A stretch of DNA of 63,837 nt, filler included. It is 6 parts of 6 records of this genome, joined end to end, with 100 filler letters (N's around TTAATTAATTAA, not from the genome) between each part and the next. Parts side by side here need not be neighbours in the genome. Positions count along the whole stretch, not along the records: positions 57,065 to 63,837 come from SRR2962707_1987; 5 more parts are not named here. One strand, written 5' to 3'. Positions within the stretch are counted from its first letter, which is position 1, and every line of letters begins with the position of its first letter. Shown here piece after piece: positions 11,205 to 63,837 of this stretch. Made by a program: the position numbers and the translations under genes. The notes under the pieces are model-generated. The model was not told the origin of the DNA, did not search any database, and saw nothing but the letters and a program-made list of their open reading frames with translations.

Positions 11205-11206
11205 AG

Positions 11207-13588: not shown

Positions 13589-13594
13589 CGCGAC

Positions 13595-17151: not shown

Positions 17152-18315
17152 GTGTCCGAATTGGGTATAGCGTACCGCGCACGACGCGCGTCCATGATCT
17201 GCGCCGTCGCAATCGCGGCCATTGTCGCCGGAGCGCCGCCCGCCTCGGCTACGACGGTAAGCGTCGAACTTGCGACATCGCCCCTCATGTGGAACCCGGC
17301 GGACCGCACGGAAATAGAGACAGGCGCGCTAACCTGGGAAGGCGGTATCGAGATTTCGTCGCCAAACACGGAATTCGGTGGCTGGTCCGGGCTGGCCGTG
17401 AGTTCCGACGGATCGGCACTGCTGTCGGTCTCCGACGAAGGCCGCTGGCTGACGGCCATTATTCTCTACGACGAACGAGGACGTCTCTCCGGACTGGCCG
17501 AGGCAAAAATGGCGCCGATGCTAGGTCTGGACGGAACGCCGATTTCCGGCAAGTCGCTCGGCGACGCGGAAAGCCTTGTCATCGATTCCGGGAATTCGGA
17601 AACCTTGATGGGAAAGGCCTATGTCGGCTTCGAACGCGCGCACAGAATATGGCGCTACGATCTCACGCAGGCCGGTGCGGAAGCGAAGCCCGAACAGCTC
17701 CTTACTCAAAGACATTTCGGCCGGCTGAACCTGAACGCAGGCATCGAGTCCCTCGAACTTCTGCCGCCATTGGACGAGGGCCGGGAGCCACGCATTCTCG
17801 CCATCACCGAGGAAACGCTCGATCCGCGCGGAAACATCAAGGCATTCATCGCCGACGGCCATAAAATTTCATGGTTCGCCGTGAAGCCACGCGCGCCCTA
17901 CATGCCGACCGACACGGCGCTCCTGCCGAATGGCGACATTCTTCTGCTCGAACGCCGCTTTTCCATGTTGGCAGGTGTCGGCATGCAGCTACGGCTCATC
18001 CCGGCAGACAGCATAAAGGCCGACGCCGTGGTGGATGGCGAAGTGCTGGTCGATGTCGGCCAGCGCTATTCGATCGACAACATGGAAGGGCTGGCGGTTC
18101 GCGAAGACGAAAACGGAGATCTGCTCGTCTATATGATTTCGGACGACAACTTCAGCGCCTTGCAGCGGACATTGCTGCTGATGTTCCGCTTGCCGAAGGA
18201 GGAGACGAAACCGGCGCCGCCCGGCCGGTCCTCTACGCTCCCCCGAACCCCGGAAGCGGACGCACCGTTCGGCGAAGCAGATAAGTCGGAAGAAGCTGCG
18301 CGAGAGCCCAGCTGA
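17152..18315 (+). CDS. Secreted esterase-like activity of phytase family protein (beta-propeller)
   Basis: Signal-like N-terminus; motifs FGGWSGL, DAESL, IDNMEGL and ISDDNFSALQRTLLLMF. Start uncertain. Confidence 0.85.
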   Translation: MSELGIAYRARRASMICAVAIAAIVAGAPPASATTVSVELATSPLMWNPADRTEIETGALTWEGGIEISSPNTEFGGWSGLAVSSDGSALLSVSDEGRWLTAIILYDERGRLSGLAEAKMAPMLGLDGTPISGKSLGDAESLVIDSGNSETLMGKAYVGFERAHRIWRYDLTQAGAEAKPEQLLTQRHFGRLNLNAGIESLELLPPLDEGREPRILAITEETLDPRGNIKAFIADGHKISWFAVKPRAPYMPTDTALLPNGDILLLERRFSMLAGVGMQLRLIPADSIKADAVVDGEVLVDVGQRYSIDNMEGLAVREDENGDLLVYMISDDNFSALQRTLLLMFRLPKEETKPAPPGRSSTLPRTPEADAPFGEADKSEEAAREPS

Positions 18316-18913
18316 ACTGAATAGCCCCCTCGACCAGTAGCCGTCCGCCAAGCTGCGCGTCCCACACCAGCGCCGGGCGCGTGTTGAAAGCAACAGCGAA
18401 CGCCATGCCGCCGAGAAACGCAGCCAGGAACGGCGCTTTCCACCAAGGAATACCGCGCAGCCAGTCGAAGAACAGGATGTTCACGAGTTGCCCGACCGCC
18501 ATTGCGCCGACGAAGGAAGCAGCGAGCGCATAGGGTGCGATTTCCTGTTCGAAATCGGCAATGAGCCCTTCCCGAACCGCCCAGAAAACGGCACCGGCGA
18601 TCAGGAGCCATGCGAGCAGCGCCGCAGTCAGGGCAAGGGCGGCGCCGTAGCGGCGGCTGGTCAGATTCAGGATAAAGAAAATCACCGGAAGAACGAGGAA
18701 ACCCCAGTTCACCCAGCCCGACGGATCGAGCAGCGGATCGACGGAGGCGAAAACCGCAAACTCCGGCACGGGCGCGTCGCGAAGATAAAAGGCAGCGAGA
18801 AACGCAGCGCACAGCGCCGCAACCGGCAGGATCAGCCGGACAATTGCGGTGACAAATCGGGAAACTATTCCCGGCCGGCTGACCGGAACCCGATCAACCC
18901 CCCTGTCAAGCAT
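18233..18913 (-). CDS. Divergent VUT family (queuosine precursor transporter-like) membrane protein
   Basis: Hydrophobic; WGFLVLPVIFFILNLTSRRYG and GQLVNILFFDWLR..WWKAP match the VUT pattern as I recall it; usual position beside rpmB. Confidence 0.7.
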   Translation of the reverse strand: MLDRGVDRVPVSRPGIVSRFVTAIVRLILPVAALCAAFLAAFYLRDAPVPEFAVFASVDPLLDPSGWVNWGFLVLPVIFFILNLTSRRYGAALALTAALLAWLLIAGAVFWAVREGLIADFEQEIAPYALAASFVGAMAVGQLVNILFFDWLRGIPWWKAPFLAAFLGGMAFAVAFNTRPALVWDAQLGGRLLVEGAIQFSWALAQLLPTYLLRRTVRPLPGFGGA

Positions 18914-19011
18914 GGTGCGCCCCCGAATACACGTAGAACCGAAGTCTAACGAGGCGTCGCCACACTCGAAAGCCTGCCACTCGATTTTCGGTAATATGGG
19001 TAAATACTAAT

Positions 19012-19039
19012 AAAAAAGGCGGCCGACAGGCCGCCTTTT
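19012..19039 (-). terminator. Rho-independent terminator downstream of rpmB
   Basis: Hairpin aaaaggcggcc-gaca-ggccgcctttt with a U-tract on the minus strand. Confidence 0.85.
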
Positions 19040-19057
19040 CCGGAAATTTTCGCGTCT

Positions 19058-19351
19058 TCAGGCCGCAGCAGCAGTCTGCACCTTCGCGATTTCGCGCTTC
19101 AGCTTCAGGGCGCGCGAGGAAAGCTGCGCATCGGAGGCCTTCAGCAGGAAGAAGTCGAGACCGCCATTATGCTCGACGGAGCGGAGCGCATGCGCCGAGA
19201 CGCGCAGGCTGATCTGACGGCCAAGCGCATCGCTGATCAGCGTCACCTGGCAGAGATTCGGCAGGAACCGGCGGCGCGTCTTGCGGTTCGCATGGCTCAC
19301 ATTATTGCCAGACATCACGGCTTTGCCGGAGAGTTCGCAGCGGCGGGACAT
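19058..19351 (-). CDS. rpmB: 50S ribosomal protein L28
   Basis: [33 protein letters not shown]; real start at 19351 with an upstream AAGGA. Confidence 0.97.
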
Positions 19352-19460
19352 AAGGTTTTCCTTCGAAATACGGGGGGCCGCTGCAGAAAACCGCGCAGCC
19401 CGGACAGGCGGGCACGTATAAAAGGCCCTGCACGGCCCGTCAAGGCCCGAAAACACTGCT

Positions 19461-20501
19461 TTAGCCGCCTTTTGCGCCGCCAAGGACAAGGCTGAGCAAC
19501 CTGCGCGCCGCCGCCGTCGGCGTGGCGCGTCCTTCCGCAACGTCCTTCTCAAGTTCAGGGATGAGTGCAGCCGCCTTGCTGTCGGCCTTGAGAGCCGAGA
19601 AGAGCCCCTCTCGGATCTCGGTCCACATCCATGCCCGGGCTTGCGCGGCGCGCAGGCGGTCTAGCTCCCCCGCCCCCGACAGGGCATCGCGGTGTTCGCG
19701 GGCCGCCTTCCAGATCTCCTCCAGCCCCTCCCCCTTCAGTGCGGAAGCGAGCAACACGTGCGGCGTCCAGACCGCACTCTTCGGCCGCATCAGATGAAGC
19801 GCCGTCTTGTATTCCATCTGGGCGCGGCGGGCGGCCGGAATGAGATCGCCATCCGCCTTGTTGACCACGATGAGGTCCGCAAGCTCCATGATGCCACGCT
19901 TGATGCCCTGCAATTCGTCGCCACCGCCCGGCGACAGCAGCAGGACGAACATGTCGACCATATCGGCCACCGCCGTTTCGGACTGGCCGACGCCGACGGT
20001 CTCGATCATGACGACATCGTAGCCTGCGGCTTCGGTGAGCAGCATCGCCTCGCGCGTTCGCCGCGCAACGCCGCCCAGCGTGCCCCCGGCAGGCGAGGGA
20101 CGGATAAAGGCATCCGGATTGCGCGCAAGAAGCTCCATGCGGGTTTTGTCGCCCAGGATCGAACCGCCGGTGCGCGCCGAAGATGGATCGATCGCCAGAA
20201 CGGCGACCCTGTTTCCTTCGCCGATCAGGTGCTGACCGAAAGCCTCGATGAAGGTCGACTTCCCAACCCCCGGCGCACCGGAAAGCCCGAGCCGGACGGC
20301 CTTGCCGGTCTCCGGCAGCACATCTGCAAGCAGTGCCTGCGCGACCTCCTGATGGTCGGCGCGGGAAGATTCGACAAGGGTTATGGCCCGCGCAAGCGCT
20401 GTCCGGCTTCCGTCGCGAATGCCGTCCGCCAGTTGCCGCGCATCCGGGAGCCCCCTGTTGAGGGCCCGGCGCTGTGCTTGCTTTTTCTCTGTTCCGCTCA
20501 T
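19461..20501 (-). CDS. meaB: Methylmalonyl-CoA mutase-associated GTPase MeaB
   Basis: Motifs [36 protein letters not shown] and NKADG; start placed at MSGTEKK. Confidence 0.95.
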
Positions 20502-20652
20502 GGCCCCAGTTGCATACTTGGCCGGACCTGCCCCGTCCAGCCCTCGCAGGGAAGACCGGAAGCGCGCTATCGCCGCGTTCAGTCCCGGTTCAGCCTGCGG
20601 ACGCAAAAGTCGCTGGATTTCTGTAAAATCGACGGAAGCGGTGGCTTTGGCT

Positions 20653-21522
20653 ATGACCTCAGAAAAACGCACCGGATACCGAATCTCCGCCGTGCTGGCC
20701 GTCTGCCTCGCGGCGGCCGCCGGCGCGTCCGCGCCAAGCGCGGCAACGCCCGTCCACCTGGAACGGGCTGAGCCCTCGCCGGACCTCCGCGCGGACTATA
20801 CCGTCTATATCGGAGGGCTGATCGTCGCCGAGGGGTCGATCAGCGCGCGGCTGGAGGGCGAAGATTATTTTCTGGAGAACGAACTCGGATCGGCAGGTCT
20901 TCCTGGCAAGTTCTGGGATGCCCGTTGGAAGATGACGAGCGAGGGCCGCATTGTCGACGACGCGCTGCGTCCGAACCGGTTTGCCTTCAGCGCCCGGGAG
21001 AAGAACGAAACAAAGACACGCGAAATTCTTTATGACGTCCATGGCGTGCCGACGCTGTCCTTCGATCCACCATTACCGGAGGAGGAAATCGGGAAGACGC
21101 CTGCCTCGGAGCGCAAGAATACGCTAGATCCGGTAAGCGCATTCATCCTGCCGGTCGTCGCCGATGGAAATCCCTGTGACAGGAAGATTCCCGTCTTCGA
21201 CGGCAAACGGCGCTACGACCTGCAACTCATCTTCGACCGCGAAGACAAGGTGACGACCCGGAACAACGGCTATAGCGGCGATGCAATCCGCTGCAAGGTT
21301 CGCGTCCAGCCGAGAACTGGCATGGAGCGCGCGAAGCTCACAACCATGATGGAGCGGCGCGACGACACGTTCATATGGCTCGCACCCGTCAACGGCGGGA
21401 AGCTCTACATTCCCGTCCGTGTTCAGATGCGGACGCCAATTGGTGGGGCCATTCTCGATGTGGTGAAACTTCGCCGATACGCAGCGAAGGAAAATTCCGC
21501 AATGGGAGAGGCTAAACCGTAG
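20653..21522 (+). CDS. DUF3108 domain secreted protein
   Basis: Signal peptide; motifs [24 protein letters not shown] and IWLAP...[12 protein letters not shown]. Confidence 0.8.
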
Positions 21523-21529
21523 GGAATCG

Positions 21530-21766
21530 CTATTTGGCTTTACGGACCTGGCGGTTCGCTTCGCCATGAAGCGCACGCAAACGCTCAACCAGATCGTCCT
21601 CCGGTGATGTGCCGGCGATTTCGATCTCGTTCAAAAGACTCTCCAGACGAGAGGCCAGCATCCCGTAATAGGCCTTCTGTCTGCCGTCCGCATTCTTCTC
21701 GTTCGCCTCGACGGCATCCGCCAGCCGACGCCGCTTCGGGCGCGACAAATCATCCCCGGTGCTCAT
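21530..21766 (-). CDS. Small hypothetical helical protein (78 aa)
   Basis: GGAGG Shine-Dalgarno just upstream of ATG 21766; charged amphipathic sequence. Confidence 0.65.
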   Translation of the reverse strand: MSTGDDLSRPKRRRLADAVEANEKNADGRQKAYYGMLASRLESLLNEIEIAGTSPEDDLVERLRALHGEANRQVRKAK

Positions 21767-22048
21767 GGCACCTCCGTAGATCTCTCTCATGTTGAATCCA
21801 AAAAGGCAGCCATGTTTTCCCGGTTTCCTGCTCGGGAGGGCACGGCTTGCTGGACAATGCCCTTTGGCGGCGCTCGGAGATCGCTGAGCGGCACGCGTGC
21901 AAGGTCCATCGGCTCTATGGCCGAGTGGTTAACGAGGGAGATAGTCCGGCGTGTGAGCGGTTGCAATAGCGACAGCTCTTCAGCGCGCTTTTGACGCACG
22001 CGAAGTCTGAAATATAAGCAGACTTGGCGCCTGCCGATTTATCGGCAA

Positions 22049-23611
22049 TCAGGCTGCTTGCCGCCTTTTTTCGCGGATCAGAGCCAGAATTTCATTTGCC
22101 GCAACCGGAATATTCGTACCCGGACCAAAAATGGCGGACGCTCCGGCCTTCTTCAGGAAGTCGTAATCCTGCTGGGGAATCACGCCGCCGCAGATGATGA
22201 GAATATCGTCCGCGCCTTCGTCCTTGAGCGCCTTGGCAAGCGCAGGCACCAATGTTTTGTGCCCGGCAGCAAGGCTCGAAATACCGATCACATGCACATC
22301 GTTCTCGATTGCGTCGCGGGCCGCCTCTTCGGGTGTCTGGAAAAGCGGTCCGACATCGACGTCGAAACCGAGATCGGCAAAGGCGGTCGCAATGACTTTC
22401 GCACCGCGGTCGTGACCGTCCTGCCCCATCTTCACAACCAGCATGCGGGGACGGCGTCCTTCTGCTTCCGCGAACGCCTCGATTTCCTCCGAAATCTTCA
22501 TGAAGCCCTCATCACCTTCATAAGCCTGCGCGTAAACACCCGAGATGGATTTGATTTCGGCGCGATGGCGCCCGAAGACTTCTTCCATCGCATCGGAAAT
22601 CTCGCCGACCGTAGCGCGCGCGCGAGCCGCGTCGATCGCAAGTGCCAGAAGATTACCCTTGCCGCGCGCCCCTTCCGTAAGCGCGGTGAGCGCTGCTTTG
22701 CACTTCGCTTCGTCGCGCGACGCGCGGACGGCCTTCAGGCGCTCAACCTGCGACGCCAGCACCTTGGCGTTGTCGATATCGAGAATCTCGATGGGGTCGG
22801 CGTTCGAAGGGCGGTACTTGTTGACGCCGACGATCACTTCCTGGCCGCGATCGATCTTCGCCTGCCGGCGCGCCGCCGCTTCCTCGATCTTGAGCTTCGG
22901 CATGCCGGTGCCGACGGCCTTGGTCATGCCGCCAAGTTCTTCCACTTCTTCGATCAGCTTCCAGGCTTCGCTTGCGAGCGAATGAGTGAGGCTTTCGATG
23001 TAGTAGGAGCCGCCCATCGGATCGATCACGTTGGTGATGCCCGTCTCATGCTGAATGACGAGCTGCGTGTTGCGCGCGATGCGGGCGGAGAAATCCGTCG
23101 GCAGCGCAATCGCCTCATCGAGCGCATTCGTATGCAGCGACTGCGTGCCGCCGAGAACGGCGGCCATCGCTTCGATGGTCGTGCGGATCACGTTGTTGTA
23201 AGGATCCTGCTCCGTGAGCGAAACACCCGAGGTCTGGCAATGCGTCCGCAGCATGGACGATTTCGCATCCTTCGGATTGAATTCCGACATGATCCGCGCC
23301 CAGAGGAACCGCGCCGCGCGAAGTTTTGCGATCTCCATGAAGAAATTCATGCCGATGGCGAAGAAGAAGGAAAGGCGCGGCGCGAAATCGTCGACATCTA
23401 GTCCAGCCGAAAGAGCGGCGCGGACATACTCGCGGCCGTCGGCCAGCGTGAACGCAAGCTCCTGAACCTGCGTCGCGCCCGCTTCCTGCATGTGATAGCC
23501 GGAAATCGAGATCGTGTTGAACTTCGGCATGTTCTTCGAGCAGAAGCCGATAATGTCCGCGATGATCCGCATCGATGGTTCCGGCGGATAGATATAGGTG
23601 TTGCGGACCAT
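22049..23611 (-). CDS. scpA: Methylmalonyl-CoA mutase (5' truncated)
   Basis: Motifs [25 protein letters not shown] and [10 protein letters not shown]12-binding [10 protein letters not shown]...SSLAAGH...GGVIP. Confidence 0.97.
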
Positions 23612-23612
23612 G

Positions 23613-23712
23613 NNNNNNNNNNNNNNNNNNNNNNNNNNNNNNNNNNNNNNNNNNNNTTAATTAATTAANNNNNNNNNNNNNNNNNNNNNNNNNNNNNNNN
23701 NNNNNNNNNNNN
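23613..23712. other. Artificial contig spacer
   Basis: N44-TTAATTAATTAA-N44. Confidence 0.99.
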
Positions 23713-27805: not shown

Positions 27806-30800
27806 TCAGAACCCGCTTGCCAAACTCAGGCGTGCTGGAGCCGCTGCACGCGTATGTGCTTGCTTTTGTTGCTGCGCCTGCATTGCTTTTTGCATGATAC
27901 TCTGTAAAGCCGCTCGGGAGTCGGGATCAAGGGCGGCAACTTGGGCTTTGAAGACATCGCGCGCAATTTGCAACAGGCCAAGGACGGCCGTGTGGATCGT
28001 TGACTCCAATTGTTTGAAACTAGCGCGTGCTTGGGGCGTGTTTTCTTGGGAGGGTCCTGCGATGACAGCGCGCACGAAAACAGAAAGCAGGAGGTCCATC
28101 ATACCCTGCAGTTGCGCATCAGCTGTATTGCCTCCTCCAACGCCCCCTGCAACCCGGTACGCAAGCAGCAGAAGTTGGATGCACGCCAGACGCTCTGAAA
28201 TCGGAGCTTCAGGTGAGGCAACGACCGCGGCAGCGGTGGGCCCGACGACGGCACATGCTCCTCGCAGCGTGGCCGCAGCGAGTGAAGCCGTGCCAGAGCA
28301 ATCACCTGCACTGGAGGACGTCTGCAGCAGAAACTGCAGCACTTGCCGCAAAGTTGACGACGCTTTCGATTCGACTGTGCTGAACCGCGACGCCATCACG
28401 GCGTATGCTTGACCTAAAGACCTGAGCGCTTTTGGCCCAAGCCTGAAACCTTCGACTTTCTGCCGGAAGCAGCTGACAATCACAGAGAGCGCTGCTGACC
28501 ACAAGATGCTTGCAGCGCGAGCGAATGCGCTGTTCGACGGGTCTGGGCCAAAACCTTCGACACGAGAAAGAAGGGCTTCTGCAACACCAGCAGCGGTCGC
28601 AGAGACACCCTCGTTGTGATGCGTCACAAGAGTTGTCACGCAACGTGACACACCACCTGATAAGGCATTTGCGAGGAGGGGATCTGCGTAGAGTCGCGAG
28701 TCATCCAAGAGCCTAAATAACTTCTGCAAGACAGACTGATGACCGCTGGCGCTGCTTTCCGACTCTAACATGGCGGCAAGCACCGCGCAGTAGGACCTCA
28801 CGACCAGGGCAGCGGCTTTGGACAACAACAATGACTGGTCTGTTCCACGACCACTTGCCAGTGTGATTGCATGCTGAGCAAGGGAACAAGCCGCTGCAAT
28901 TGTGTCTGTTGACATTGACGGCTTTATTGAGCTGAACTGCAGCAGTACAGCCACTACCCCCAGCAGCACATCCTGAAGAACGACGATGGATGCGGTTGAG
29001 TTACCCGCAACAGCCAAAACTGCGCTCCGTGCAAGCGATAGGACATCGCAGATAATTGCGTCTGGCACGCGTGGTTGCATCCCTGCGGCACTGGTTTCGC
29101 TTGCGTCGCTGGAAAGAGCTGCTTCTGACTTGTCGCATACCGCGCGATGGTGGTTGCACTTTATCATGTATGCAATCCCAAGCAGGGCACGCTTGGAGGT
29201 GCGTGCCGCGGAGTCGATTGGGGCATCAAAACTTTGCTCGTCATCGGTTTGGCCTTCGGGGACCGTCGGCGCTGTGGCTGGGGCTAACAAGGCCAAATTA
29301 TCAAGCAGAGTGCCGCAGAAACTACTGAGCAACAGTCGCTCAACGGAGGGTTTCTGACTGCTGGGGTCAGTCTTTGCGCAGCACGCGGCAAGTGCAACGG
29401 CGAGGCGGGGCCATGCAACGAGATCGTTGTACATTTCGCAGAACTTTGAAACTCCATCGGCCGACGGGTCAGGCCAAGTGCGCAGTTGTGGCAACATTCG
29501 CTGTCGCTGGTCGACTGGCAAGGCTTGACCAGACGCAATGGCCCGATCCAAAGCAACTCTCGTCCACAGCGACTGTAAAAGTGGGGCGTGATGTGCCAAA
29601 GCTTGCAGGACGTCACTACTCTCACCGTCAGCTCCAGTGGTATGCTCTTCAAGTATGGAGGAAAGCCTGTCGTCCTCCGCCCCGACCCAGAGCTTGGCGA
29701 GCAAGCTTAAGATGGCGTGGCTTCGAACTGGCAGAGCAGCAAGGCCTTCTCTTCCAACGTGGCTGCACTCCGAGCTGGGATCTTTACTGTCGGCATCGCT
29801 GTTCGCGTTGAGGTTCTCCACGTCGTTGTTGGGCCCATCGGAAGTGCTACCGCCAGTTTCAAGCTGCAACGCGCGCACTAAAACGTCAATAAGCCGCCGA
29901 TGCGAGGTTGGTACAATGCCCCTGGCAAACGCGTGACCAACGCACTGACATGCAACGGTCACAAGCGCAGCAGGGGCATTTTCCCGCGAAAATGACTCCC
30001 GCAGTGCAACCACCAGCTGGGTCTCGTATCTAAAAAGCAACAGCCACCAAGCACAGAGGCAACACGCATGAGCGCTCGACTTGGCCATGGAGCAACCCAG
30101 GCGAGGTTTGCGGGTACAGTCAACGTACTGAGCGAGAATGCTGACGTTTTCTTTAACGTCAGGATCGGCACAAGAGCTGAATGCTCGCAGCAAAGTGTAC
30201 AGGACCTGTCAGCCATTCACATAGGGTTAACATGCAGCAAGAGCACAGCCTGTAGCAAAATAGCTGCACGCTGTTCGAACCTTCACAGCCGCAATTTGCA
30301 CGGGCAAAAGTGCTTCCTCCTCGGCGCCCGTAACTTGCACCGCTGAAAAGTTACAGCACAGTCTAACCATTGTGCCTATCCGCCCGACAAGGAAGTCGGT
30401 TGGAACCAACGGTGCATCAATGCCAACATGATTGTTTCCGTCGGTGGAAAGTCGATCACGAAGGGCACCGAGATCAACCCGATCGCCACCCTGTGCCGCT
30501 TCAAGGGAAATTAGATGGTTGACGATCTTTCATGTCCAAATAAGCGACATGCACGCAACCGAAGGCGACACAACACCTTGTTAGCATCGCGCGGAATTGG
30601 GAAAGGCAAACCTCCAACAACACAACACAAGACCCGGCAAACAACGCACCCGAAATGCATGGCACTTCGTTTGCCATCGTGGCTTTGCTGATCGAAAAAT
30701 CGGCACTTGCGCCACGTGCCATTTTAAGGCCTTTTTCGGGATCGCTGATTTCGCTCCAGATTCAGCATCGCCATCATCGTCGCTGTCGCTGCTAGCATCC

Positions 30801-36396: not shown

Positions 36397-36496
36397 NNNN
36401 NNNNNNNNNNNNNNNNNNNNNNNNNNNNNNNNNNNNNNNNTTAATTAATTAANNNNNNNNNNNNNNNNNNNNNNNNNNNNNNNNNNNNNNNNNNNN
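36397..36496. other. Artificial contig spacer
   Basis: N44-TTAATTAATTAA-N44. Confidence 0.99.
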
Positions 36497-42504: not shown

Positions 42505-42604
42505 NNNNNNNNNNNNNNNNNNNNNNNNNNNNNNNNNNNNNNNNNNNNTTAATTAATTAANNNNNNNNNNNNNNNNNNNNNNNNNNNNNNNNNNNNNNNN
42601 NNNN
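42505..42604. other. Artificial contig spacer
   Basis: N44-TTAATTAATTAA-N44. Confidence 0.99.
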
Positions 42605-53844: not shown

Positions 53845-54521
53845 ACTCGCAACGGCTGTAGCATCGCGTACTGGCTCAATTCACCCAACCATTGACGCCC
53901 GCCAATGATCGTACCTCTGGGTGACACAATGAACGTGTTGGTCACTTCAGGTCCATTACCTGTACAGGCCGCGGTCATGACCCGACCGGACATGTTAAGT
54001 GTGCCAACGACCACGGGAACGGTGGTTCCGGCCGTAACCATACACGAGTAGTTGTATTCAATCGTCTGGTCTTCGCCGTTCAGGAACCGCATGACATAGG
54101 GCGCGATACCGTTTTGGCGATTTGAAACAAGTCTGAGAAGCGACCGAGTTTCCGATGACATCAAATCGCCGCCGAACCCCCGCGTCGCTGTAATCATACC
54201 GCCACGCACGACATAGGATTGGCGCGAGCTGGTGCCAAATGTTCTATACGGGCCATTTTTAGCTATTTCCAAGAACAACGCCTGTGCGTTCCGGGATTCG
54301 AGAGAAAGAATAGAGACTGGAACCGACGTCGCGTTCAATGCTTGCGCCATCTGTTCCTGGGTTGGCCCCGATGGCTGCGTCTTTGGCTTCGGTTTGAATG
54401 TGGACAGCAGGCTTTGGCGCATGGCTTTGGAATCTGCTACGTCAGCATCGTTGCCACAGCCAGCCAATAGACCCAGTGCCATAAGTCCGATCAACGAGTA
54501 TCGTTTGAAAGATCCGGTCAT
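53841..54521 (-). CDS. YjbF/GfcB family lipoprotein
   Basis: Lipobox LLAGC; motif GMITATRGFGGDLMS; translationally coupled to the YjbH gene. Confidence 0.82.
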   Translation of the reverse strand: MTGSFKRYSLIGLMALGLLAGCGNDADVADSKAMRQSLLSTFKPKPKTQPSGPTQEQMAQALNATSVPVSILSLESRNAQALFLEIAKNGPYRTFGTSSRQSYVVRGGMITATRGFGGDLMSSETRSLLRLVSNRQNGIAPYVMRFLNGEDQTIEYNYSCMVTAGTTVPVVVGTLNMSGRVMTAACTGNGPEVTNTFIVSPRGTIIGGRQWLGELSQYAMLQPLRV

Positions 54522-56623
54522 CTCCAGAACTTACCCCACGTTTTGTCCATTTCTGGCTTGTGATAATCACGGACACCTTCGTAAAGGCGACCCGGTACAT
54601 TGAGGCGCGCGCCACCATCACGTGTCAGTGACTTAATTTCGGTGGTCGAGCGTTTGCGTGAAGGTGTGCCGATCATCGTGGACAAAGGCACAGTTAGGCG
54701 AATGCCCTTGTCAAAAGACCCCTCGCCAAAGTCCTCAAACGAGGCATTTGTGAAGGTGGCATAAGCGCCGACACGCCAGCCGTTGGAAAACTCTCGGTCC
54801 AAGCTGATTGTGCCGCCGTAATCGCCCGCCAAATAGCGCCCGATGTCTAGCTGACCATGAAAGTTGTTGCCCATGTCATAGTATACGGAGGCATGTCCTG
54901 TAGCGATTTCGTAGTCTTGAAGGCCGAACAGTTGATCGAAATCACGTTGTTTGACGTAGTTGAGTTCGACACCTAGTGCGAGACGGCTATCAACAGGCTT
55001 CCAGAGAACTTCGCCCGAAACACCGGCATACATTGTTTCAAGGTATCCGAAAGTTAAACGGCCGTAGAGATCTTTGCCGGGGCGACTATAAGCCGATACC
55101 GTCAGGTTCTCGATCGCCGGATTACCTTGTTTGCTATATTTGGCATAGTCGGTCCGGACCCGTGGCAAGCCTGATGGATCTACCCGGCTGATGCTATCGA
55201 GATTTCCGCCCAGCTTCTTTGTTAAGGATCCAGACAAAACGACATTTGGTGTTATCTGATAACTTGCCTTTGCACGCGCACCAACATCGGCGCGGATCGG
55301 ATTATCCGGATCAAACACGCTGAGCATGATGTAAGGTGATAGCGACCAATTGAATTTTGGATAAATGCCATCAACCGCATCTGGTGCTTTCTTATAGCCA
55401 TCCATAATCTTCGTCTTCGCCAGGATGGCCGACGCTTTCTCGTGCTCCAGCTTTTCAACATCAGACCGTCGCATCTGAATGGCAGACATAGGGAGGCCGT
55501 TTACGACCGGCACAATCTCAAACAACTCGACAGAACCGGGAAGGGCGCGTGTCATAATACGCGCCGTGCGACCGATGGCCTGCGGAGTGTTTCCATAACG
55601 TGGGTTACGAAGCCGAACGGTGGCTGTTCGCGCCTGAAGATCCAGGCCTTCCAAAACCAGACCTTCGTTTGCAAGAGCCGCGCTTAAGACCTTGAAAGTC
55701 GATGCTGGTTTTTGTGTATCGCTTGTCCAACCGAGATCTCTTGCGCTTGCCGCAGATCTCACATTGACAGGAGTTGGCGCGGTTTCAGCTCCACCTGGAA
55801 ACGGCACTTGCCGCAAATTCGCTGGCAATGTGAACTGAACACCGATTTCATTGCCATAGGCATAATAAACTGAAGCTTGGTTCCCGTTTTTGAACGTGTA
55901 GTCGATGCCATAGTTCCAAGGACTTTTGTGCTGGAACTGACCGTCGGTGCTTTCCAGCGCATAGTTGTCTGAAGAGTATTCCAACTTGAACGTAAAGTTC
56001 TTGTTCGGCGAATAGCTCACGCCGCCAAATGCTGCTGCATCTCCACGGAACCAACGATCATAGGTTGGAATTCCGCCTTCACCCAAAAGTTCTGCGGGGC
56101 GCGTTCCTGTTGATCCGAACGAATTGTAGCTGCCCAGACGGCCCCAGCCGACACCTCCGGTAAGCTTTAAACCAGGGGCAACGGTTTTGGTGGCAACAAT
56201 ATACTCACCACCATAAAGGCCGGTCCCGATAAAATCCTGTAACCCGACTGTGACCGCAGGGCGGTTCTTGGTCTCTGTGACAAGCTGGTACCGCAAATCA
56301 AAGCTACGATCATAGTAAACCCCGTCGACACTGGCCGGACTGGTGAAATTGCTGATCGCACTGTAGCGAAATGACCCGGACAAACGCGGCAAGATTTGAA
56401 AGCCCAAAGTCGTGCGCGTTGTATCGCCCATTTTGGAAACGGTCGTCGATAACGTTGCTTCAGGCTGTGCGTCGGCGGTCGGCATATCGACCAACCCGGG
56501 TGAGCCAAATAGATTGTAGCTGGGTTTCTCCTGAGCAACGACAGCAGTGATTGCAACAGTCGTCAACGCGAACGTAGCAACGGTGGTTCGTAGCAGGCCA
56601 AAGCGGGTTTTTTTAATATGCAT
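54518..56623 (-). CDS. YjbH/GfcD domain outer-membrane protein
   Basis: Signal peptide; motifs FGSPGLVDMPTA, DRSFDLRYQL, GRYLAGDYG and FGEGSFDKG. Start placed at MHIKK. Confidence 0.88.
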   Translation of the reverse strand: MHIKKTRFGLLRTTVATFALTTVAITAVVAQEKPSYNLFGSPGLVDMPTADAQPEATLSTTVSKMGDTTRTTLGFQILPRLSGSFRYSAISNFTSPASVDGVYYDRSFDLRYQLVTETKNRPAVTVGLQDFIGTGLYGGEYIVATKTVAPGLKLTGGVGWGRLGSYNSFGSTGTRPAELLGEGGIPTYDRWFRGDAAAFGGVSYSPNKNFTFKLEYSSDNYALESTDGQFQHKSPWNYGIDYTFKNGNQASVYYAYGNEIGVQFTLPANLRQVPFPGGAETAPTPVNVRSAASARDLGWTSDTQKPASTFKVLSAALANEGLVLEGLDLQARTATVRLRNPRYGNTPQAIGRTARIMTRALPGSVELFEIVPVVNGLPMSAIQMRRSDVEKLEHEKASAILAKTKIMDGYKKAPDAVDGIYPKFNWSLSPYIMLSVFDPDNPIRADVGARAKASYQITPNVVLSGSLTKKLGGNLDSISRVDPSGLPRVRTDYAKYSKQGNPAIENLTVSAYSRPGKDLYGRLTFGYLETMYAGVSGEVLWKPVDSRLALGVELNYVKQRDFDQLFGLQDYEIATGHASVYYDMGNNFHGQLDIGRYLAGDYGGTISLDREFSNGWRVGAYATFTNASFEDFGEGSFDKGIRLTVPLSTMIGTPSRKRSTTEIKSLTRDGGARLNVPGRLYEGVRDYHKPEMDKTWGKFWR

Positions 56624-56841
56624 CAGGTCCAACATGCCCATGTCCCTAAAACTCAGGAACTTTTCATCAATTGCTATGCCAAGCGTCGTCACAAGTCTAC
56701 TAAATCGCCGTGGTTTGTTGCTGGACTGTGCGAAATCCGGCACGTTGTCGGCGAAAATTAACCTGACATTTTGAATCGTTAAGCAGCGCGAAAGGTTTTG
56801 GCGTCAGGAATTTTCCTGGGTGGCAGAAAAGGTGGTGTTTG

Positions 56842-56964: not shown

Positions 56965-57064
56965 NNNNNNNNNNNNNNNNNNNNNNNNNNNNNNNNNNNN
57001 NNNNNNNNTTAATTAATTAANNNNNNNNNNNNNNNNNNNNNNNNNNNNNNNNNNNNNNNNNNNN
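56965..57064. other. Artificial contig spacer
   Basis: N44-TTAATTAATTAA-N44. Confidence 0.99.
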
Positions 57065-57085
57065 TGTGTGTGTGTGTGTGTGTGT
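57065..57085. repeat. (TG)n microsatellite at the contig start
   Basis: Seen directly. Confidence 0.9.
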
Positions 57086-57222
57086 TTGTGTGTTCTGTTC
57101 CGCTCGTGCGTGTGCGTTCTTGGATACGTCACGCGTTCTTTCTGCTTCTTCTCAGTAGCGACATGGTCCGCTCCTTCGACCGCCCCACCTTCGCGTGGAG
57201 GAGGTAGAGCTGATTCCTCGCA

Positions 57223-60200
57223 ATGGTTGCCGAAATGCGACTTGCTCTCCTGCGAGCTGTGATGGGGAGTCGTCGCTTGTTGTTGGTGTTGTTGTTGCGG
57301 CCGCTGCTGCTGCTCTCAACTCTCGGTGTCACAGTTCCCGTGGTTTTCAGCACGGAGCTCTACGTGGCAAACCAAACGTGCACGTACGAGGTCTCGGACC
57401 CGCCCACCAACTACTCCACTTGGACCCGCAACCAGTGCACTGACCTCGTGTACGGCCTTGTGGAGGATGAAGCCGGGCAGCCACTGCATGGGCTCACTGC
57501 CAACCGCGACTTGCGGATGCGCAACTGCTGCCCACTGGCGCAAGAATTTTTCCGTTGCTTTTCAACTTCTGATTGGTCCGACTACGACCCTCCAAGTGCT
57601 CTTGCCACGATGACAGCAATTGCCCCTACGGGGTGCACCGGTTTCTTTGACGAGCAAGTAGCCATGAAAACTTTAGGGTACAACCTGGACTGCCCGATTC
57701 CGCCCCCACCGTACTGTTTCCCACTGCACAACTGCATTGCCGAAGAGAGTGAGCGCAACTTCACGGATGCAAGTGGAGTCGTGATCGCGGGACCATGGCC
57801 CAACACACAGATGGAGGATTACGCTACGATTCCTTGTGCATCGACAGAAATTGGACCACTCGAGGGCAAATACTCTGGCCTCCTCATTGGGTACTGCAAC
57901 AACGGGACCATTGAGCCGACCAATAGCTCCTGTATCCCAAACCCATGTGGCGTCAACGGTGGTGAGATCGATGCAGGCTTCGATGCCTCAGGGATAAAGA
58001 TTTGGGGGCCATGGCCTGCAGTAACTGCCGACCACTGGAGCTACATTGAGTGCCACCCGTACGTGGGTTGCAGGTTGATGAAGATTTCCCCGAGTTGGGT
58101 GGGCATGTATGCTCGTGGGACATTGGTGTTGCTGTGCTAACAACGCAGTTTTATGCAGGTACTACGCAACAGGACCGATTCCCGCCGAAGGCACGTTCAC
58201 CGGCAGAATAGGTTGGTACAATCTGCAGTCTCAGTGCAGCCACATCTGCACACCTGCTCCCCGGCACCATCAAATGGCCGAATTACTCTTGGTTTAGGTC
58301 GCTACTGCAAAGCGGGTGTGCTCCTGCCCACAACGGACAGCTGTGTGCCAGACGACTGCGTACAACTGAGCGATGGTGGTTTTGATGCCGATGGAAATCC
58401 GTTGCGTGGGCCGTGGGCGGCTGCTGCGCATGGCTCGTACGTGAGAGTGCATTTTTTTTTTTGTTTTGTTTGTTATGTTTTTGCATATTTGTATCTTCGC
58501 CTGCCAAAGCACCACCTGTCGCAAATCACGGTCTCAAGCCACTTTATCGTTTGTAGGTATGCCACGCTGTCTTGCAGCTCTGCAGCAGGGCTCGACGGCG
58601 GGTGGAACGGCTCCGATATCCCGCACTTTGTTGGAACTGTGTCTCGCAAGTGCCATGCAGGTTCTTTTGCCCTTCCGAACGCATCTTGTACGTTTCCCTC
58701 GCAAGCTTTATGCACCGTGATATGCAAACGTTCACGTGGGTGCTCACCTCCTGGGAATGCATGCCAGCGAGTGTCATCCTAGTGCGAGTTTGAATTTTCA
58801 TTTTTGTGCACTTTTCCTCAACTTCCACCCTACTTCCAAATCATGCATGCCGTGTTTGACTGTTGCTTGTCTTCCACTCACTTGTGTTTGGAATGCCAAT
58901 GGCACTCCTTTGCCTTGCACCGCCATTCGCGTTCATAGCCGTGTGTGAGTGACCCTGCGAGTGTGCGGCTTTTGCCGTTTTGCAACATCACGGATTTGCC
59001 TCTTGCTTCCCATTGTTTCACTCTCGCTTGTCAGTCTGATCATTCCTTGTGCATACGTGACACAGGTACCGGTGCCCCTTGTGCACACTCAACGTTTTAC
59101 AATCTTGGGGCCGAGTGAGTGTGATTGTGGTCCTAGCATATTTTTTTCTGGTAGACACAACCGTATCAAAGTCAATTGTCCGTGCTCGAAATGAAACCAC
59201 TCGTTGCCCGTAGGTATGAAGAGCTGGTCGACGCAAACGGAACGCAGCTGCAAGGCCCGTGGCCAGCTGTTGAACACAACGGGACTACACAGCTCGACTG
59301 TTCAGATCCCGTCACTGGGGTGGCTGTCGAAGACGGATTTTGGGAGGGGATCGTCACACGGCACTGCAATGGTGGTGTCTTGGGCCCGATCGAAGGTTTC
59401 TGTACGCCATTGAACTGCACTGCGAGCACAGATGCAATGTTCGTGTAATTGACACAGTTTCTCCGATGAAGTCACTGATGCTAGTGATGCTTTTTCACTG
59501 GTTGCTCTTGAGCTTCCCCTTTGCGTCTCATTGTGTGTGTTGTCTGTTGGTCTCTATTTTTCAGCTACGATGAAGTGGGACATGCGCTCAATGGACCATT
59601 CTTCTTTACAGTGCATGGTGAAGTTGCAAATATCTCGTGCGCAGATAGTGGTACCAACGAGGAGCTAGGTCGCGGCCCCAAAGACCGACTCAATGACTAC
59701 TACGGCATGGTGACACGCGAGTGCTATGCTGGGCAATGGCAGGATGTTCAAGGAGAATGTAGGATTGAGGAGTTACTCAGCCCTGAACAAACTACCACAG
59801 CATCCTTGTCGGTGTCTGGGAGTGTGGGTGGACTTGTGTTGCTGGTGCTCGGCTTTGTGGGTGTATCCGGTGTTCTTGACGGCGTGTGGTGGGGAGGGCG
59901 ATCCCTCACCACCTACGCTGGAATAAAAGCCCAGTCTTTTGTGTCTACGTCGGGCATGGTGGCTGTGGCGCTGCTGGTGGTGCTGCAAGACTACGCAGCT
60001 TTTTCGCGCTTCGAATTTGTCAGGGCCAAGGCCAGCACTGTTGCCACTATGGCGGCAGGTTTCCAATGGGCTTCGCTGTACACTGACTGGTTCATTCCTT
60101 GTGGACAAGAATGTGGGGTCTTTGAGGATTTCAATGGAACCGATGATCTTTCCTCAACGACGACCACCACGACTACTACTACCACTACCACCACCATCAC

Positions 60201-63200
60201 CATCACCACCACGCCCATGACTACTTCAGATTTGACAACTTCCACAACAGTATCCACCACCATGGCTCCAGCCCCAGCCAACGCCACGGAAATCGAAAAT
60301 GCAAACGTGACAACGATTGCTCGCCGATTTCTATTGGACACGGCTACTTCTGTATTTGGAACAGTCCCCCTTACAACCGCCCCATTGTCGTTACCTACCA
60401 CAGCGGCTGTTTTTGAAACAACATTCTTGTTAAATGCATCGGCAAATGGATCAAATTTCCTTTTTTGCTTCGGGGACGGCGTTTTCAATGAAACCAACGA
60501 TGCAGTCGCTATTGCAACCGCTGCCAACCAACTGCTCAACATGTCAGCAGTTGCACTCGGGCTGCTTGTGCTCAGTGTTTTGGCCATTGTTGTTGCGTAC
60601 ATATATGGCCACGTGGTAGTCTCGCGTCTCCTGGACATGCATTTGCGCCGTTTGACGCGACTGGCGAGTGATCCAGCCCAAAAGTTGTGTTTCCTTCACC
60701 TGTTGCGCCGCGAAGAAGAAGAGCATGAAGAGCGCCGCCGCATGCTGCTGAACGGTCATGGCGGGGATCGAAACGATTACCCAGGTTTCCCGCCGATTCG
60801 CCCGGCAGGAAGAGCCGCACACAACGCACGTGCTGCCAGTGCCATTCTGTTGCTCCAAACACACATCAAGAAATGGCAGCGACGCAGACATCAAGGTGCA
60901 GAGCTCTTGCAAGCGGCGTTTCGAGGTTGGCGTGAGCGGCGCTACAAGTTAGCCCGCTTTTGGGCCCGCATGTGGGACCCCAACTTGCATCAGTTTTACT
61001 TTTTTAATCGGAGAACCAACCAGTACGTTTGTTGCTGGAGACAACTGCTTGACGTGCCATAAGTTTGACTCAAGACATTTCGTCCGGAATCTCATATTTG
61101 CCACGCATGTATGCAGGTTCACATGGAATGAACCGGAGGGCTTTCGGCAGTCTTATTCAGACCAACTTGTGGCCAGGGATCCTGTCATCAGCGTTGCAAT
61201 GCGAGTGCAACGTGTGTGGCGCGCCAGTCAAACGCGCAAAAAATGGAGTCACTTGCTGAGAGAAATGGCTCGGGAACGGAAACGGCGCCAGGTACAGGCT
61301 GAAGCCTCAGCTTCAGCCGAAGCTGCCGCTCAGAAGCGGAAGAAGCGGCGCCCACGGCCTTCCGAAATTGGTCTTCAGAGCAGTTCAACGACGAGAGCAG
61401 ATGAACAGCGAGCACCCGTTGGATCGCCCAAAGTTCTAAATGGTGTGCCAGACACCAAATTTGACATTAAGACTCTAGGAGCGCAGCTTGCAAGCGGCAC
61501 AGCAAACGCAGCGGTGCGTGCGTCAACGTTACAGGTTGAGAGTCACGTCATTATCGCGACAAACTGCTTCACTCCATTTGTTTTATGCAACTTTCTTTGC
61601 TCCTGTGTTCCCTGAAGGCTGCGATTCGAAAAGGCACCAAGGAACTAGCTGCCTCGGCCGTGCGTGAACACGACAGCATGGTGACCAAAATGCAGCTGGC
61701 CAAGGCACTGCGTGACCAGGGATTTGAGGCCCCGCACATTGAGAAGGCGTTCCAGATCGTGGGGAGCGCTGACCCCCAGGCCGCGTACGACTGGCTAAAG
61801 TCGCATTACCCTCGCGCACAGGACCGTGCACCAACGGCCCCTGAGCCGCCCAAAACCCGAAAACAATCTCGTGCTAAAGTCAGAGTTGACCTATTCGCGA
61901 GGCACGCCAGCAGTGGCGAACAGGTCATTGAGCTGACCGACACAGCTTTGAGTGCAAGCAAGCGTAATCCTAGTGAAGGCAGCGGAAAAGTAGCGTGGGC
62001 CACCCCGTCGAAAACCGGTGACGGGGATATGGGAATGGATCTTGAAGCCGGCGTTGCTGCAGATACGGATGACTCAACCAAAACACAAAACGACGGCAGA
62101 GTTGTGGTCAAGAAGAGCAAGAGGAAGAAGAAGCTCAAGCCAGCGGCGAATTTGGACGAGTTGGCAGAGCGACTGACACTCTGTGGTCGGATTCAGAGCG
62201 GCCTTTTGTATCTGTGGTTAAGCTTGACGCTCGCGCAGGCGCAAAAGGCAAATAAACGAGAACGCTTTCAAGGCGGGGAAGAGGCCTTTACAACAGCGCG
62301 TCAGTTCAAGTTCGATTTCAAGTCTGGTCATAACCAGGGCCCTGACGCCGAGCGTGTGTGGGGGGTGCGGCCCATTCCGTATCTGGCGATAATTTTGTGT
62401 CTCGTCCTTTTCAAATCGTTTGCGGACATTGGGCCGTTCGTCATCGTCGCATGGCTGCGGTTGGCAGACAGTGAAGACGCTGAAGCCACGGCAGCCATCA
62501 CAGCGCCAGTCCTTGCCTTTGCTATATTTTGGCTCGTTGTTGCGCTAGTTGTGATTGTTGTGGCTGCCTACGCGGTTGGAGTCGTCCACCTGAGGCAGAA
62601 CGCCTTCGAGTAAGTGCTACAGCAGTCTGCCTTTAGCATCGCTGCCCCATTCGCTGTTTCTTGAAGTGCCACTCTCATTCATTGACGTCGTCAAACTTTC
62701 AGATTTGCTAAGCCCTTTGGTAGCCAAGTGGTGGCTGGTGACGTCGGTACAGAGACTGGATGGTGGAAGAACAGATTCGTGGACGACAAAGAGCGTCAAT
62801 TTCAACTGACACAGGATGGTGCAGTTATGAAGGCTCGCGTCCAGGTACGACGCGCAAAATTATGTTTTGATTGGTGACAGACGCGTCGTTGCACAACAAT
62901 TTGCGATCCAAGTGATATTGGTCCGCGTTGTTTTCCCTCTGCGCCAACGCCCTGGATCTCACTTTCATTTTTTAAAACCTGTTTTGTCAGACGTGGGGCA
63001 TTTGGGTTGCTTTGGCGGGACCGCACAAAGGTCGCGAGTGGTTCCTGACGGTGTGGCTCACGTTTGTCCTGGCGGAGGGCGTTGCGTTTGCTGTGTTGTC
63101 GGGAGCAGAGGAACTTCTGGCAGCGTTTCTGTTTAAGTTGGTGTTGGCCACCATTGTTTGTGGGTGGCAGCCAGTGAACGGCCGAGTTCAGTTGTGGACA

Positions 63201-63545
63201 CTGCGCTTGAATCCAAATCTCTTCCTTGGCGCCTCGCAGCTACTTGTGGGACTGCAGTCCTTGATGATGTACGCTTATCCGTACGAGGACTGCCTGGCGT
63301 TGCCGACCGACCTGGTGGCGGTGCACCTCTTGTACATGGCTGCGGTCGTCACGCTTCTTGTCCTGTTTCTACTCGCGGATCTGCTTATTGCCGCAGTGAG
63401 GTGCAAGGACAAGTACCGGCGAAAAGGAAAAACGGGTCACAATAGTAAAAAGGGTGGACATGGAAGAAAAAAAGGGAGAAAGAAGAAGAAAAAGAAGAAA
63501 AAGTCCGCGAAAGTTAGTGCCGTGGCCCCCGAGAGCTATCAGTGA
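57223..63545 (+). CDS. Large multi-pass membrane protein: signal peptide, 5 HRM-like Cys modules, about 9 TM, Thr-rich loop, cytoplasmic IQ-IQ-WW-IQ-UBA region, polybasic tail; about 10 introns
   Basis: GT-AG introns (e.g. 58059-58158, 58212-58297, 58437-58556, 58688-59065, 61023-61116, 61514-61617) join the ORF-track fragments in frame; domain motifs recognised by eye. Confidence 0.78.
60157..60213 (+). repeat. ACN trinucleotide tract encoding poly-Thr (mucin-like)
   Basis: Long Thr run interrupted by two Ile codons within ORF 59521-61062. Confidence 0.9.
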
Positions 63546-63662
63546 TGCGTGCGCGGGTGTCCAGAAGGCGAGACAGCTTACTATGAAAATTATTTACTGA
63601 AAACATCAAACATTCCGTAACATACGCCCCAAAATACCGCAACACCGTCGGCTAATCAGCCG

Positions 63663-63836
63663 CTACTCTCGCAGCGGCTTAATTCCGAGCTTTGCGCGCT
63701 CGATGTTCCAATACTCCACCGAACCCTTCACCACAGCACCAGTGCTTGCTGCTGGAGCGGCGTTGGCAGCAGCGCTCGTCGCTCCGTGTTCGCGCGACGT
63801 TTGATTATTCTTCTTGTCTTTCTTTTTCTTGTCCTT
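63663..63836 (-). CDS. 3' end of a gene with a Lys-rich tail and C-terminal HIND (Hub1-interaction) motif, probably splicing factor Prp38 (absent from the ORF track)
   Basis: Translates as KDKKKKDKKNNQTSREHGATSAAANAAPAASTGAVVKGSVEYWNIERAKLGIKPLRE*; compare the HIND consensus SIEETNKLRAKLGLKPL. Confidence 0.75.
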   Translation of the reverse strand, partial: KDKKKKDKKNNQTSREHGATSAAANAAPAASTGAVVKGSVEYWNIERAKLGIKPLRE

Positions 63837-63837
63837 C

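Follow-up and report, generated by a model that had tools for sequence, protein, structure and literature searches.

The Locus and its Gene

The DNA considered here (the window, 63,837 nucleotides in full) is made up of six contigs joined by spacers of the form N44-TTAATTAATTAA-N44 and is not one molecule; the gene that is the subject of this report sits on the last of these contigs (57065-63837, ~53 % G+C) and encodes a predicted protein of 1660 amino acids (aa). On the evidence presented below, this protein is probably a surface glycoprotein of a protist, with a type-I start and several membrane passes, which carries five tandem, divergent units of the HRM/HormR (hormone receptor domain) type with a Sushi-like fold, and which would serve in adhesion or as a receptor, being neither a G protein-coupled receptor (GPCR) nor a recognisable channel. 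The spacers and the parts of the gene are located in the window as follows.

11105-11204, 23613-23712, 36397-36496, 42505-42604, 56965-57064: spacers between contigs
57223-58058, 58159-58211, 58298-58436, 58557-58687, 58939-58944, 59066-59114, 59214-59438, 59565-61022, 61117-61513, 61618-62609, 62703-62844, 62991-63545, plus strand: whole gene, 12 exons (GT..AG introns, open frame, joints in sequencing run X2)
58939-58944, plus strand: 6-nucleotide micro-exon CCGTGT (extra letters at the X2 joint 58687/59066; flanked by AG and GTGAGT)

The gene model was obtained by reading the plus-strand frames and pairing GT and AG sites, and it runs over 57223-63545 from an ATG at 57223 to a stop codon at 63543-63545 as a single open frame of 1660 codons, all of its introns being of the GT..AG type. 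One contig of run X2 that lacks introns (record 8, 5357 letters) spans 57141-63800 and skips every intron at GT..AG; that this run is of RNA is a guess, none of the listed sequencing runs being given as RNA. Nine of the joints are listed (58058/58159, 58211/58298, 58687/59066, 59114/59214, 59438/59565, 61022/61117, 61513/61618, 62609/62703 and 62844/62991), and a tenth, 58436/58557, which lies beside a skipped repeat, was deduced from the coordinates of the record, in which 186 letters are accounted for as 131+6+49. The exon chain given in the preliminary description of this DNA stands in that all of its introns are seen to be skipped in the X2 contig, and it required the addition of the micro-exon, which contributes two residues (S-V) before the last Cys, in the tail of the third of the five units. 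The micro-exon lies inside what had looked like a single intron of 378 nucleotides. Some depth within introns is also contributed by X2 contigs, so unspliced or DNA-derived contigs must be present in that run too.

A contig of the DNA run X1 retains the introns and is collinear with the window over 57100-63031. At 62360 (plus strand, exon 9) this contig is one letter short (depth 33.4 of 33.4) of the window, with which the spliced contig of X2 is in accord; the missing letter, which would shift the frame if it were real, is probably an assembly slip in the X1 contig. A (TG)n run occupies 57066-57095, at the start of the gene's contig and just upstream of the gene.

It had been allowed in the preliminary description that the exons for the outer part of the protein and those for its transmembrane (TM) part might belong to separate transcripts. 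Both are carried by the one spliced X2 contig, and an independent relative, P0043, likewise has modules 4 and 5 together with the first two TM helices in one frame (66 % identity over 166 aa). P0043 was the sole relative among the matches listed for exon 7, for which there were at least 8000 candidates, a number probably due to the Thr run that this exon encodes.

Five Tandem Modules of Four Cysteines

The five units can be delimited from Cys to Cys on the spliced protein, and their positions in the window, introns included, are listed here.

57733..57933, plus strand: module 1 (C171-C237); pattern match, AlphaFold mean predicted local distance difference test (pLDDT) score 87.3, nearest folds class B GPCR ectodomains
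57946..58344, plus strand: module 2 (C242-C312); pattern match, two introns inside
58357..59067, plus strand: module 3 (C317-C389); pattern match, three introns and the micro-exon inside
59080..59403, plus strand: module 4 (C394-C468); pattern match, BLASTP likeness
59416..59760, plus strand: module 5 (C473-C545); pattern match, BLASTP likeness, 66 % identical in P0043

The existence of five tandem Cys modules, as claimed in the preliminary description, is confirmed: its pattern, rewritten as a regular expression, finds exactly five matches in the spliced protein (aa 182-237, 254-312, 326-389, 411-468 and 482-545), all five of the strings that it quoted are present, and the range that it gave, 57223-59765, extends from the start codon to two codons beyond the last Cys of module 5 (59758-59760). 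The units measure 67-75 residues, contain four Cys each, and are separated by linkers of 4 residues between the last Cys of one and the first Cys of the next. By sequence comparison, their likeness to each other is beyond chance, as seen for module 1 against module 4 (BLASTP E 5e-11) and for module 4 against module 5 (E 3e-6).

Conservation was assessed over 32 modules of the family, in which the successive positions of the motif are retained as follows: the Asp in 28, the Gly, Pro and Trp of G-P-W in 27, 28 and 31, the next Cys in all 32, a Gly in all 32, the Arg in 28 and the Cys of R-x-C in 32, the following Gly in 29, a Leu in 25, and the last Cys in 32. In the D-x-x-G turn the Asp is thus kept in 28 and the Gly in 25 of the 32, and a Pro stands in 28 of 32 at the place of the "CW" Cys of HRM. 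Among the five modules of the window, module 5 is the only one that retains the Trp of G-x-W. The four Cys would be joined as C1-C3 and C2-C4, in the Sushi pairing, by analogy with the disulfides C54-C97 and C77-C113 of the class B receptor PAC1R.

Kinship of the Modules with HRM

A profile made from six module sequences (A1) and run against a database of 1,835,955,588 representatives retrieved 35 proteins at E<=1e-3, 12 of which lie at E<=1e-10. The strong matches include the window's own frames (P0001 and P0009), P0004, P0005, P0006 and shorter fragments; P0005 and P0006 are five-module fragments and resemble orthologues. For exon 1 there are three relatives (P0002-P0004, 60-67 % identity), and among 6725 candidates none was a longer exon 1 homologue at E<=0.01 or gave a full-length gene model. 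The family member P0007 (1266 aa, an uninterrupted frame on contigs of ~11-12 kb) combines a Sushi domain recognised by Pfam with three TSP1 domains, runs of Thr, five modules, a single TM helix and a tail. Since its five modules stand in a different architecture, the module moves between architectures and has been shuffled among those of surface proteins.

Of the A1 matches, 33 were scanned with Pfam, and seven of these carry HRM (PF02793), for the most part in many copies, above its gathering score of 26.2 bits:

P0023: 186.5 bits, 8 copies
P0018: 169.8 bits, 8 stretches, E 1.6e-50
P0028: 155 bits, 6 copies, and Sushi
P0024: 144.5 bits
P0030: 65.2 bits, also matches Sushi
P0019: 59.9 bits, also matches Sushi
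P0029: 29.8 bits

P0018 is KAK8813335.1, a hypothetical protein of the stramenopile Blastocystis sp., which contains HRM units in tandem, 8 by Pfam and 10 by the local profile. Two further A1 matches lie below the HRM cutoff, and one of them is the family member P0008 (22.1 bits, E 2e-4); it matches PF02793, at positions 12-63 of the 66 in that profile, and not the Sushi family PF00084. Within the seven HRM-positive proteins, 42 of the 44 matches to the module profile fall inside HRM repeats.

The two groups of sequences were also compared directly. An alignment of the 32 family modules (from 13 proteins) matched by hhalign an alignment of 56 HRM repeats (from the seven Pfam-positive proteins) with a probability of 98.1 % (E 8e-14, 47 columns), as against at most 1.2 % (E>=0.043) in 21 controls, namely the HRM alignment read in reverse and 20 shuffles of its columns. 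The G-P-W-P of the modules is paired with the x-x-W-P-x-T of HRM, followed by the next Cys, and y-x-G-x-v-x-R-x-C-x-x-G-x-L is paired with g-y-x-G-x-x-t-R-x-C-x-x-x-G-x-W, followed by the last Cys.

The fold evidence concerns one module, of 76 residues. For module 1 (window 57727-57954, 15 module sequences) AlphaFold2 gave a model with the mean pLDDT of 87.3 listed above and a predicted template modelling (pTM) score of 0.73. Foldseek, which had been named in the preliminary description as a check on the modules, bears out the proposed likeness in that class B GPCR ectodomains fill nearly all of the top rows for this model, CRFR2alpha first among them (E 0.21, probability 0.84-0.89, TMq ~0.5). 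In a wide search with VIA, which is independent of Foldseek and covered 48,161 chains, the 17 highest rows include 14 that are by title class B or adhesion GPCR ectodomains (Z 3.3-4.6), among them PTH2R (4.6), VIPR2 (4.4), CELSR1 (4.1), GPR110 (3.9) and Gpr126 (3.8). The other three are two Sushi chains of IL-15Ralpha (Z 3.7-3.8) and one chain without a receptor in its title, and CCP modules come next at Z 2.4-3.0. A second look gave CRFR2alpha at Z 5.5, with 58 aligned residues, 26 % identity and a root-mean-square deviation of 2.0 A, over chain residues 38-102, which do not include the N-terminal helix. For the predicted model, the absolute scores are low, as is expected for 76 residues, and the ranking is specific.

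A number of observations weigh against an assignment to HRM, or against the wider reading of the protein that is built on it. Neither PF02793 nor PF00084 was matched by any single module (0 of 15 at E<=10), nor did Pfam scans of exons 1, 6 and 7 bring out HRM or Sushi at E<=1. When the six-sequence module profile was run against PDB sequences, no class B receptor appeared at E<=10, and the rows obtained were at the level of chance (a fimbrial subunit, a cadherin). In the structural searches Foldseek produced no match at E<=0.001, its best being at 0.21, and the wide VIA search no row at Z>=5, so low are the scores in absolute terms. The HRM repeats used for the hhalign comparison were drawn from proteins found by the module profile itself and so do not constitute an independent sample. 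As for the conserved Asp (28 of 32), it stands 10 residues before the Trp, as compared with 5 in PAC1R, and lies outside the hhalign alignment. The IQ, WW and UBA motifs of the cytosolic part, described below, are known from patterns and sub-threshold matches only, and the function that we propose is drawn from architecture alone.

The view that the modules are a divergent, reduced, four-Cys form of HRM/HormR is nevertheless largely supported. Because they miss the Pfam threshold and a third of the cysteines that define HRM, we file them as a divergent four-Cys variant of the HRM type and not as plain members of the family. The HRM likeness put forward in the preliminary description therefore holds as far as the profile matches to Pfam-positive HRM proteins, the hhalign probability and the fold ranking carry it, and it does not extend to the six Cys of the domain or to recognition by PF02793. 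The accompanying statement that HRM usually occurs as a single copy is correct for animal GPCRs, and it needs to be qualified elsewhere, as tandem arrays of Pfam grade exist, for example the 8 stretches of KAK8813335.1.

The Modules Compared with Canonical HRM Domains

The features that the modules share with HRM/HormR (PF02793) are the W-P strand (Trp in 31 of 32 modules), a Cys ~12 residues farther on (32 of 32), the h-x-R-x-C strand (Arg in 28 and Cys in 32 of 32), followed by a Gly (29 of 32) and a [W/L], and the last Cys (32 of 32). The nearest solved folds are likewise of this kind (CRFR2alpha, PTH1R/2R, VIPR2, CELSR1, GPR110 and the HormR of latrophilin). The differences are best appreciated by reference to PAC1R, for which the excerpted text of a structural study describes the disulfides C34-C63, C54-C97 and C77-C113, corresponding to C1-C3, C2-C5 and C4-C6 of HRM, and the invariant residues D59, W64, P78, G101 and W102 (PMC3098264). 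HRM has six Cys in three disulfides and the modules have four; they are without the N-terminal helix and its Cys, and also without the C1-C3 disulfide, because Pro replaces the "CW" Cys (C63 of PAC1R). The second Trp (W102) is a Leu in 25 of the 32 modules and is kept as Trp in module 5, there are ~5 extra residues between the Asp and the Trp, and the scores of the modules are below the Pfam threshold. We would guess that the Asp of the modules is the equivalent of D59, which in PAC1R is described as capping a beta-turn and as able to form a salt bridge with R95 (PMC3098264, as excerpted).

In class B and adhesion GPCRs the domain stands in front of GAIN or 7TM_2, in contrast to the five tandem copies seen here. 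The protein had been described as a non-GPCR, and this is upheld by Pfam scans of the exons, taken one by one, in which neither 7TM_2 nor GAIN was matched. Blastocystis KAK8813335.1 resembles the product of the gene in having four-Cys units of HRM type arranged head to tail, and differs from it in that its units pass the Pfam HRM model strongly and begin with a short C-P-x-D-G-x-W-P, without the D-x-x-G-x-x-h-x-G-P-W-P extension. A further parallel, by description only, is found in the nucleariid Fonticula alba, for which the excerpted text of a recent survey reports five or six membrane proteins that have HRM and are not GPCRs (eLife 2025, PMC12716839). In these, HRM is again borne by membrane proteins other than GPCRs, here outside Holozoa; they differ in having been detected by a Pfam search at 1e-5, according to the same excerpt, a threshold that the modules of the window would not pass.

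The Remainder of the Protein

The five modules are preceded by a hydrophobic start and a Cys-rich head and are followed by a large part that is predicted to be membrane-bound and cytosolic. Its features are the following.

57223..57351, plus strand: N-terminus resembling a signal peptide (aa 1-43); hydropathy peak at aa 16-43
57352..57732, plus strand: Cys-rich N-terminal head (aa 44-170, 8 Cys); 60-67 % conserved in P0002-P0004
59812..60006, plus strand: TM1 (aa 563-586), a short basic loop and TM2 (aa 604-627); hydropathy, conserved in P0043
60007..60531, plus strand: predicted outer loop of 175 residues with a Cys pair, a Thr-rich mucin-like stretch and 7 N-x-S/T sequons; hydropathy and patterns
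60532..60615, plus strand: TM3 (aa 803-830); hydropathy 2.83
60853..61252, plus strand: predicted cytosolic IQ-like motifs (aa 910, 928 and 996) and a WW-like motif (aa 946-972); pattern matches
61681..61815, plus strand: UBA-like stretch (aa ~1120-1164); two sub-threshold matches at the same place
62365..63404, plus strand: block of 5-6 hydrophobic helices near the C-terminus (aa 1348-1614); hydropathy, without a match in Pfam, PDB or the ESM Atlas
63405..63542, plus strand: Lys-rich C-terminal tail; composition

The relatives P0002-P0004 likewise begin with a hydrophobic leader, which is followed by a conserved YVANQTC. The head has no Pfam match, and an AlphaFold model of the head with module 1 (6 sequences) was unusable at pLDDT 38. 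The Thr-rich stretch of the predicted outer loop lies at aa 675-760 (aa 675-765 being 47 % Ser+Thr) and gives a weak match to Pfam Mucin (E 0.0046, below the cutoff). On the side predicted to be cytosolic, the best that Pfam offers for the IQ-like motifs is E 0.52, the WW-like motif is split by the intron at 61023-61116, and the UBA-like stretch is matched by Pfam UBA_DHX29 (E 0.0091) and by the UBA domain of PDB 1whc (E 0.12), both below thresholds. The predicted layout thus has the mucin-like stretch and the sequons for N-glycans in an outer loop, and the IQ-, WW- and UBA-like motifs in the cytosolic part.

The membrane topology was read from Kyte-Doolittle hydropathy in windows of 19 residues. 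Besides the signal peptide there are 8 clear hydrophobic segments and a weaker one seen by eye, with which the earlier count of about 9 helices is compatible; ~520 predicted cytosolic residues divide the helices into a group of 3 and a group of 5-6.

Alternative Explanations

Foremost among the alternatives, and in our estimation an unlikely one, is that the modules are ordinary Sushi/CCP/SCR (PF00084) repeats of a CCP-type adhesion molecule and that their HRM likeness reflects merely a shared superfold. The resemblance to CCP arrays is real: four Cys per unit, linkers of 4 residues, which fit the 3-8 residues of CCP linkers, a tandem layout like that of beads, and the same superfold (Z 2.4-3.8). 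In the wide search IL-15Ralpha Sushi (Z 3.7-3.8) falls short of the best HRM rows by less than 1. It was also to clusters of Sushi_2 and Sushi that exon 1 gave its leads in the ESM Atlas, weak ones below 0.8 (0.79), an HRM/Sushi cluster following at rank 23, and the relative P0007 has a Pfam Sushi domain elsewhere in its chain. Yet the signature W-P ... C ... h-x-R-x-C ... G-x-[WL] is that of HRM and not of CCP, and no Pfam Sushi match was obtained for the modules. The module profile, moreover, retrieved HRM proteins (7 of 33 above the HRM cutoff) and not Sushi-only ones; P0019, P0028 and P0030, which match Sushi as well, score far higher for HRM, and P0008 matches PF02793 without matching PF00084. 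In structure, CCP chains rank under 14 HRM rows, and the best match is CRFR2alpha, with the 26 % identity over 58 residues noted above.

A sensor-channel, in which the 9 helices would form a pore like those of TRP, Flc or Pkd2 proteins, the ectodomain would gate it and the D-x-x-G turns would bind Ca2+, appears less likely still. The protein has in common with the fungal Flc/TRP-like (PF06011) and Pkd2-type channels only its multiple passes and a large luminal or outer N-terminal part, to which may be added IQ-like motifs, which together with many TM helices are common on Ca2+-regulated channels, and the retention of D-x-x-G (28 and 25 of 32 modules). The likeness of the membrane part to Pkd2/Flc proteins that had been suggested in the preliminary description was not borne out: Pfam scans of exons 7, 9 and 11 (59566-61020, 61540-62613 and 62976-63545, scanned separately) gave no match at E<=1 to PF06011, PKD_channel, Ion_trans, 7TM_2, GAIN or any channel family, searches of PDB sequences with the same exons gave nothing below E 0.08, and the ESM Atlas gave no usable match for exon 9. 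The idea of a channel, with no channel family matched, is so far left without support, as is that of Ca2+ binding. The division of the helices into 3 + 5-6 by a long cytosolic insert is, to our knowledge, unlike the TRP/Flc layouts, and a single Asp plus Gly is not the pattern of a Ca2+ site.

That the modules might be a lineage-specific, Cys-rich invention that has converged on the HRM pattern is a view to which one could be led by their invisibility to Pfam and by the tiny size of the family (12 representatives at E<=1e-10 in 1.84 billion); we regard it as very improbable in the face of the contrast between the hhalign match and its 21 controls, the graded series that leads from the family through the sub-threshold P0008 to HRM proteins of Pfam grade, and the agreement of the predicted fold. 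Finally, that the long frame is an artefact, two adjacent genes or a chimeric contig having been fused by the exon model, would be conceivable inasmuch as the RNA status of X2 is guessed and Logan contigs, for which several loose ends are listed, may be chimeric, and it is scarcely credible when one X2 contig follows all introns at GT..AG with 1660 codons remaining open, the ectodomain-TM junction is in one frame in the relative P0043, and the X1 DNA contig is collinear over 57100-63031.

A Possible Arrangement of the Protein at the Cell Surface

If the divergent HRM-type reading is adopted, the five units would most likely form, by analogy with CCP arrays or with the HormR of adhesion GPCRs, a stiff, glycosylated stalk of beads on a string, which would present the head and its own faces to a protein, peptide or glycan partner. 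Judged from hydropathy and composition, the chain would then cross the membrane three times, leaving the mucin-like loop outside, and would continue into the ~520 cytosolic residues, in which the IQ-, WW- and UBA-like motifs might tie it to calmodulin-type proteins, to PPxY partners and to ubiquitin-dependent trafficking, before ending in the block of 5-6 helices and the Lys-rich tail. In the same way as in class B ectodomains, the conserved Asp would most likely cap the turn that precedes the W-P strand and pair with the conserved Arg, Ca2+ binding (which had been proposed for this hairpin) being less likely. Such a role as turn cap and partner of a salt bridge would provide an account of the conserved Asp, and of the Arg of R-x-C, that is equally as simple as Ca2+ binding.

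Evolutionary Implications

The excerpted text of the survey cited above describes HRM as confined for the most part to holozoans, Fonticula alba being the single exception, and reports the domain in adhesion GPCRs of choanoflagellates and filastereans (PMC12716839). Holozoans, holomycotans, amoebozoans, plants and ciliates were covered in the HRM search of that survey, and stramenopiles are not named in the excerpt (PMC12716839). Apart from this one, our search of the literature turned up no paper that deals with tandem HRM arrays of protists or with HRM from stramenopiles.

The present analysis shows a small HRM-type family on protist surface proteins that is invisible to Pfam, and HRM arrays of Pfam grade in a protein of a stramenopile (Blastocystis); both are relevant to the age and the ancestry of the domain with which class B receptors bind hormones. 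As a tentative proposal, to which we give somewhat less than even credence, the modules might represent a "proto-HRM", that is, a form with four Cys, intermediate between Sushi and the class B HRM with its six Cys, present on non-GPCR membrane or adhesion proteins of protists outside Holozoa. If this were true, HRM would be an older adhesion module of eukaryotes and not an invention of the holozoan stem, toward which the current literature leans; it would later have acquired a helical cap and one more disulfide and been placed ahead of GAIN/7TM. The present protein would then also be the first case of an HRM array wired to a multi-pass membrane core that bears (sub-threshold) IQ, WW and UBA motifs. 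The evolutionary point would be weakened if the source organism were a holozoan. The family can be viewed as a naturally minimal form of HRM, devoid of the helix and of the first disulfide, and might be of use for learning what the core fold alone can bind.

Neighbouring Contigs

The other contigs of the window offer a few observations of their own. Base composition is ~63 % G+C in the piece 11205-23612 and 50-57 % elsewhere. Nearly the whole of the first contig is taken up by one uninterrupted frame of 3522 codons (453-11021, minus strand), for which no Pfam family was found at E<=0.001. On the contig adjoining that of the gene, a 741-aa frame (54518-56743, minus strand) corresponds to a full-length YjbH exopolysaccharide protein (PF06082, E 1.2e-215), and this contig is bacterial. 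A 795-aa frame at 27806-30193 (minus strand) gives weak matches to Laa1/Sip1/HEATR5, one above the cutoff (PF25808, 29.6 bits) and one below it (PF20210, 25.7 bits); judged by these matches it may encode a eukaryotic trafficking protein of the HEATR5/Laa1 kind, which could help to place the organism. The bacterial YjbH contig and the HEATR5/Laa1-like frame together indicate that the assembly is that of a eukaryote with bacterial companions.

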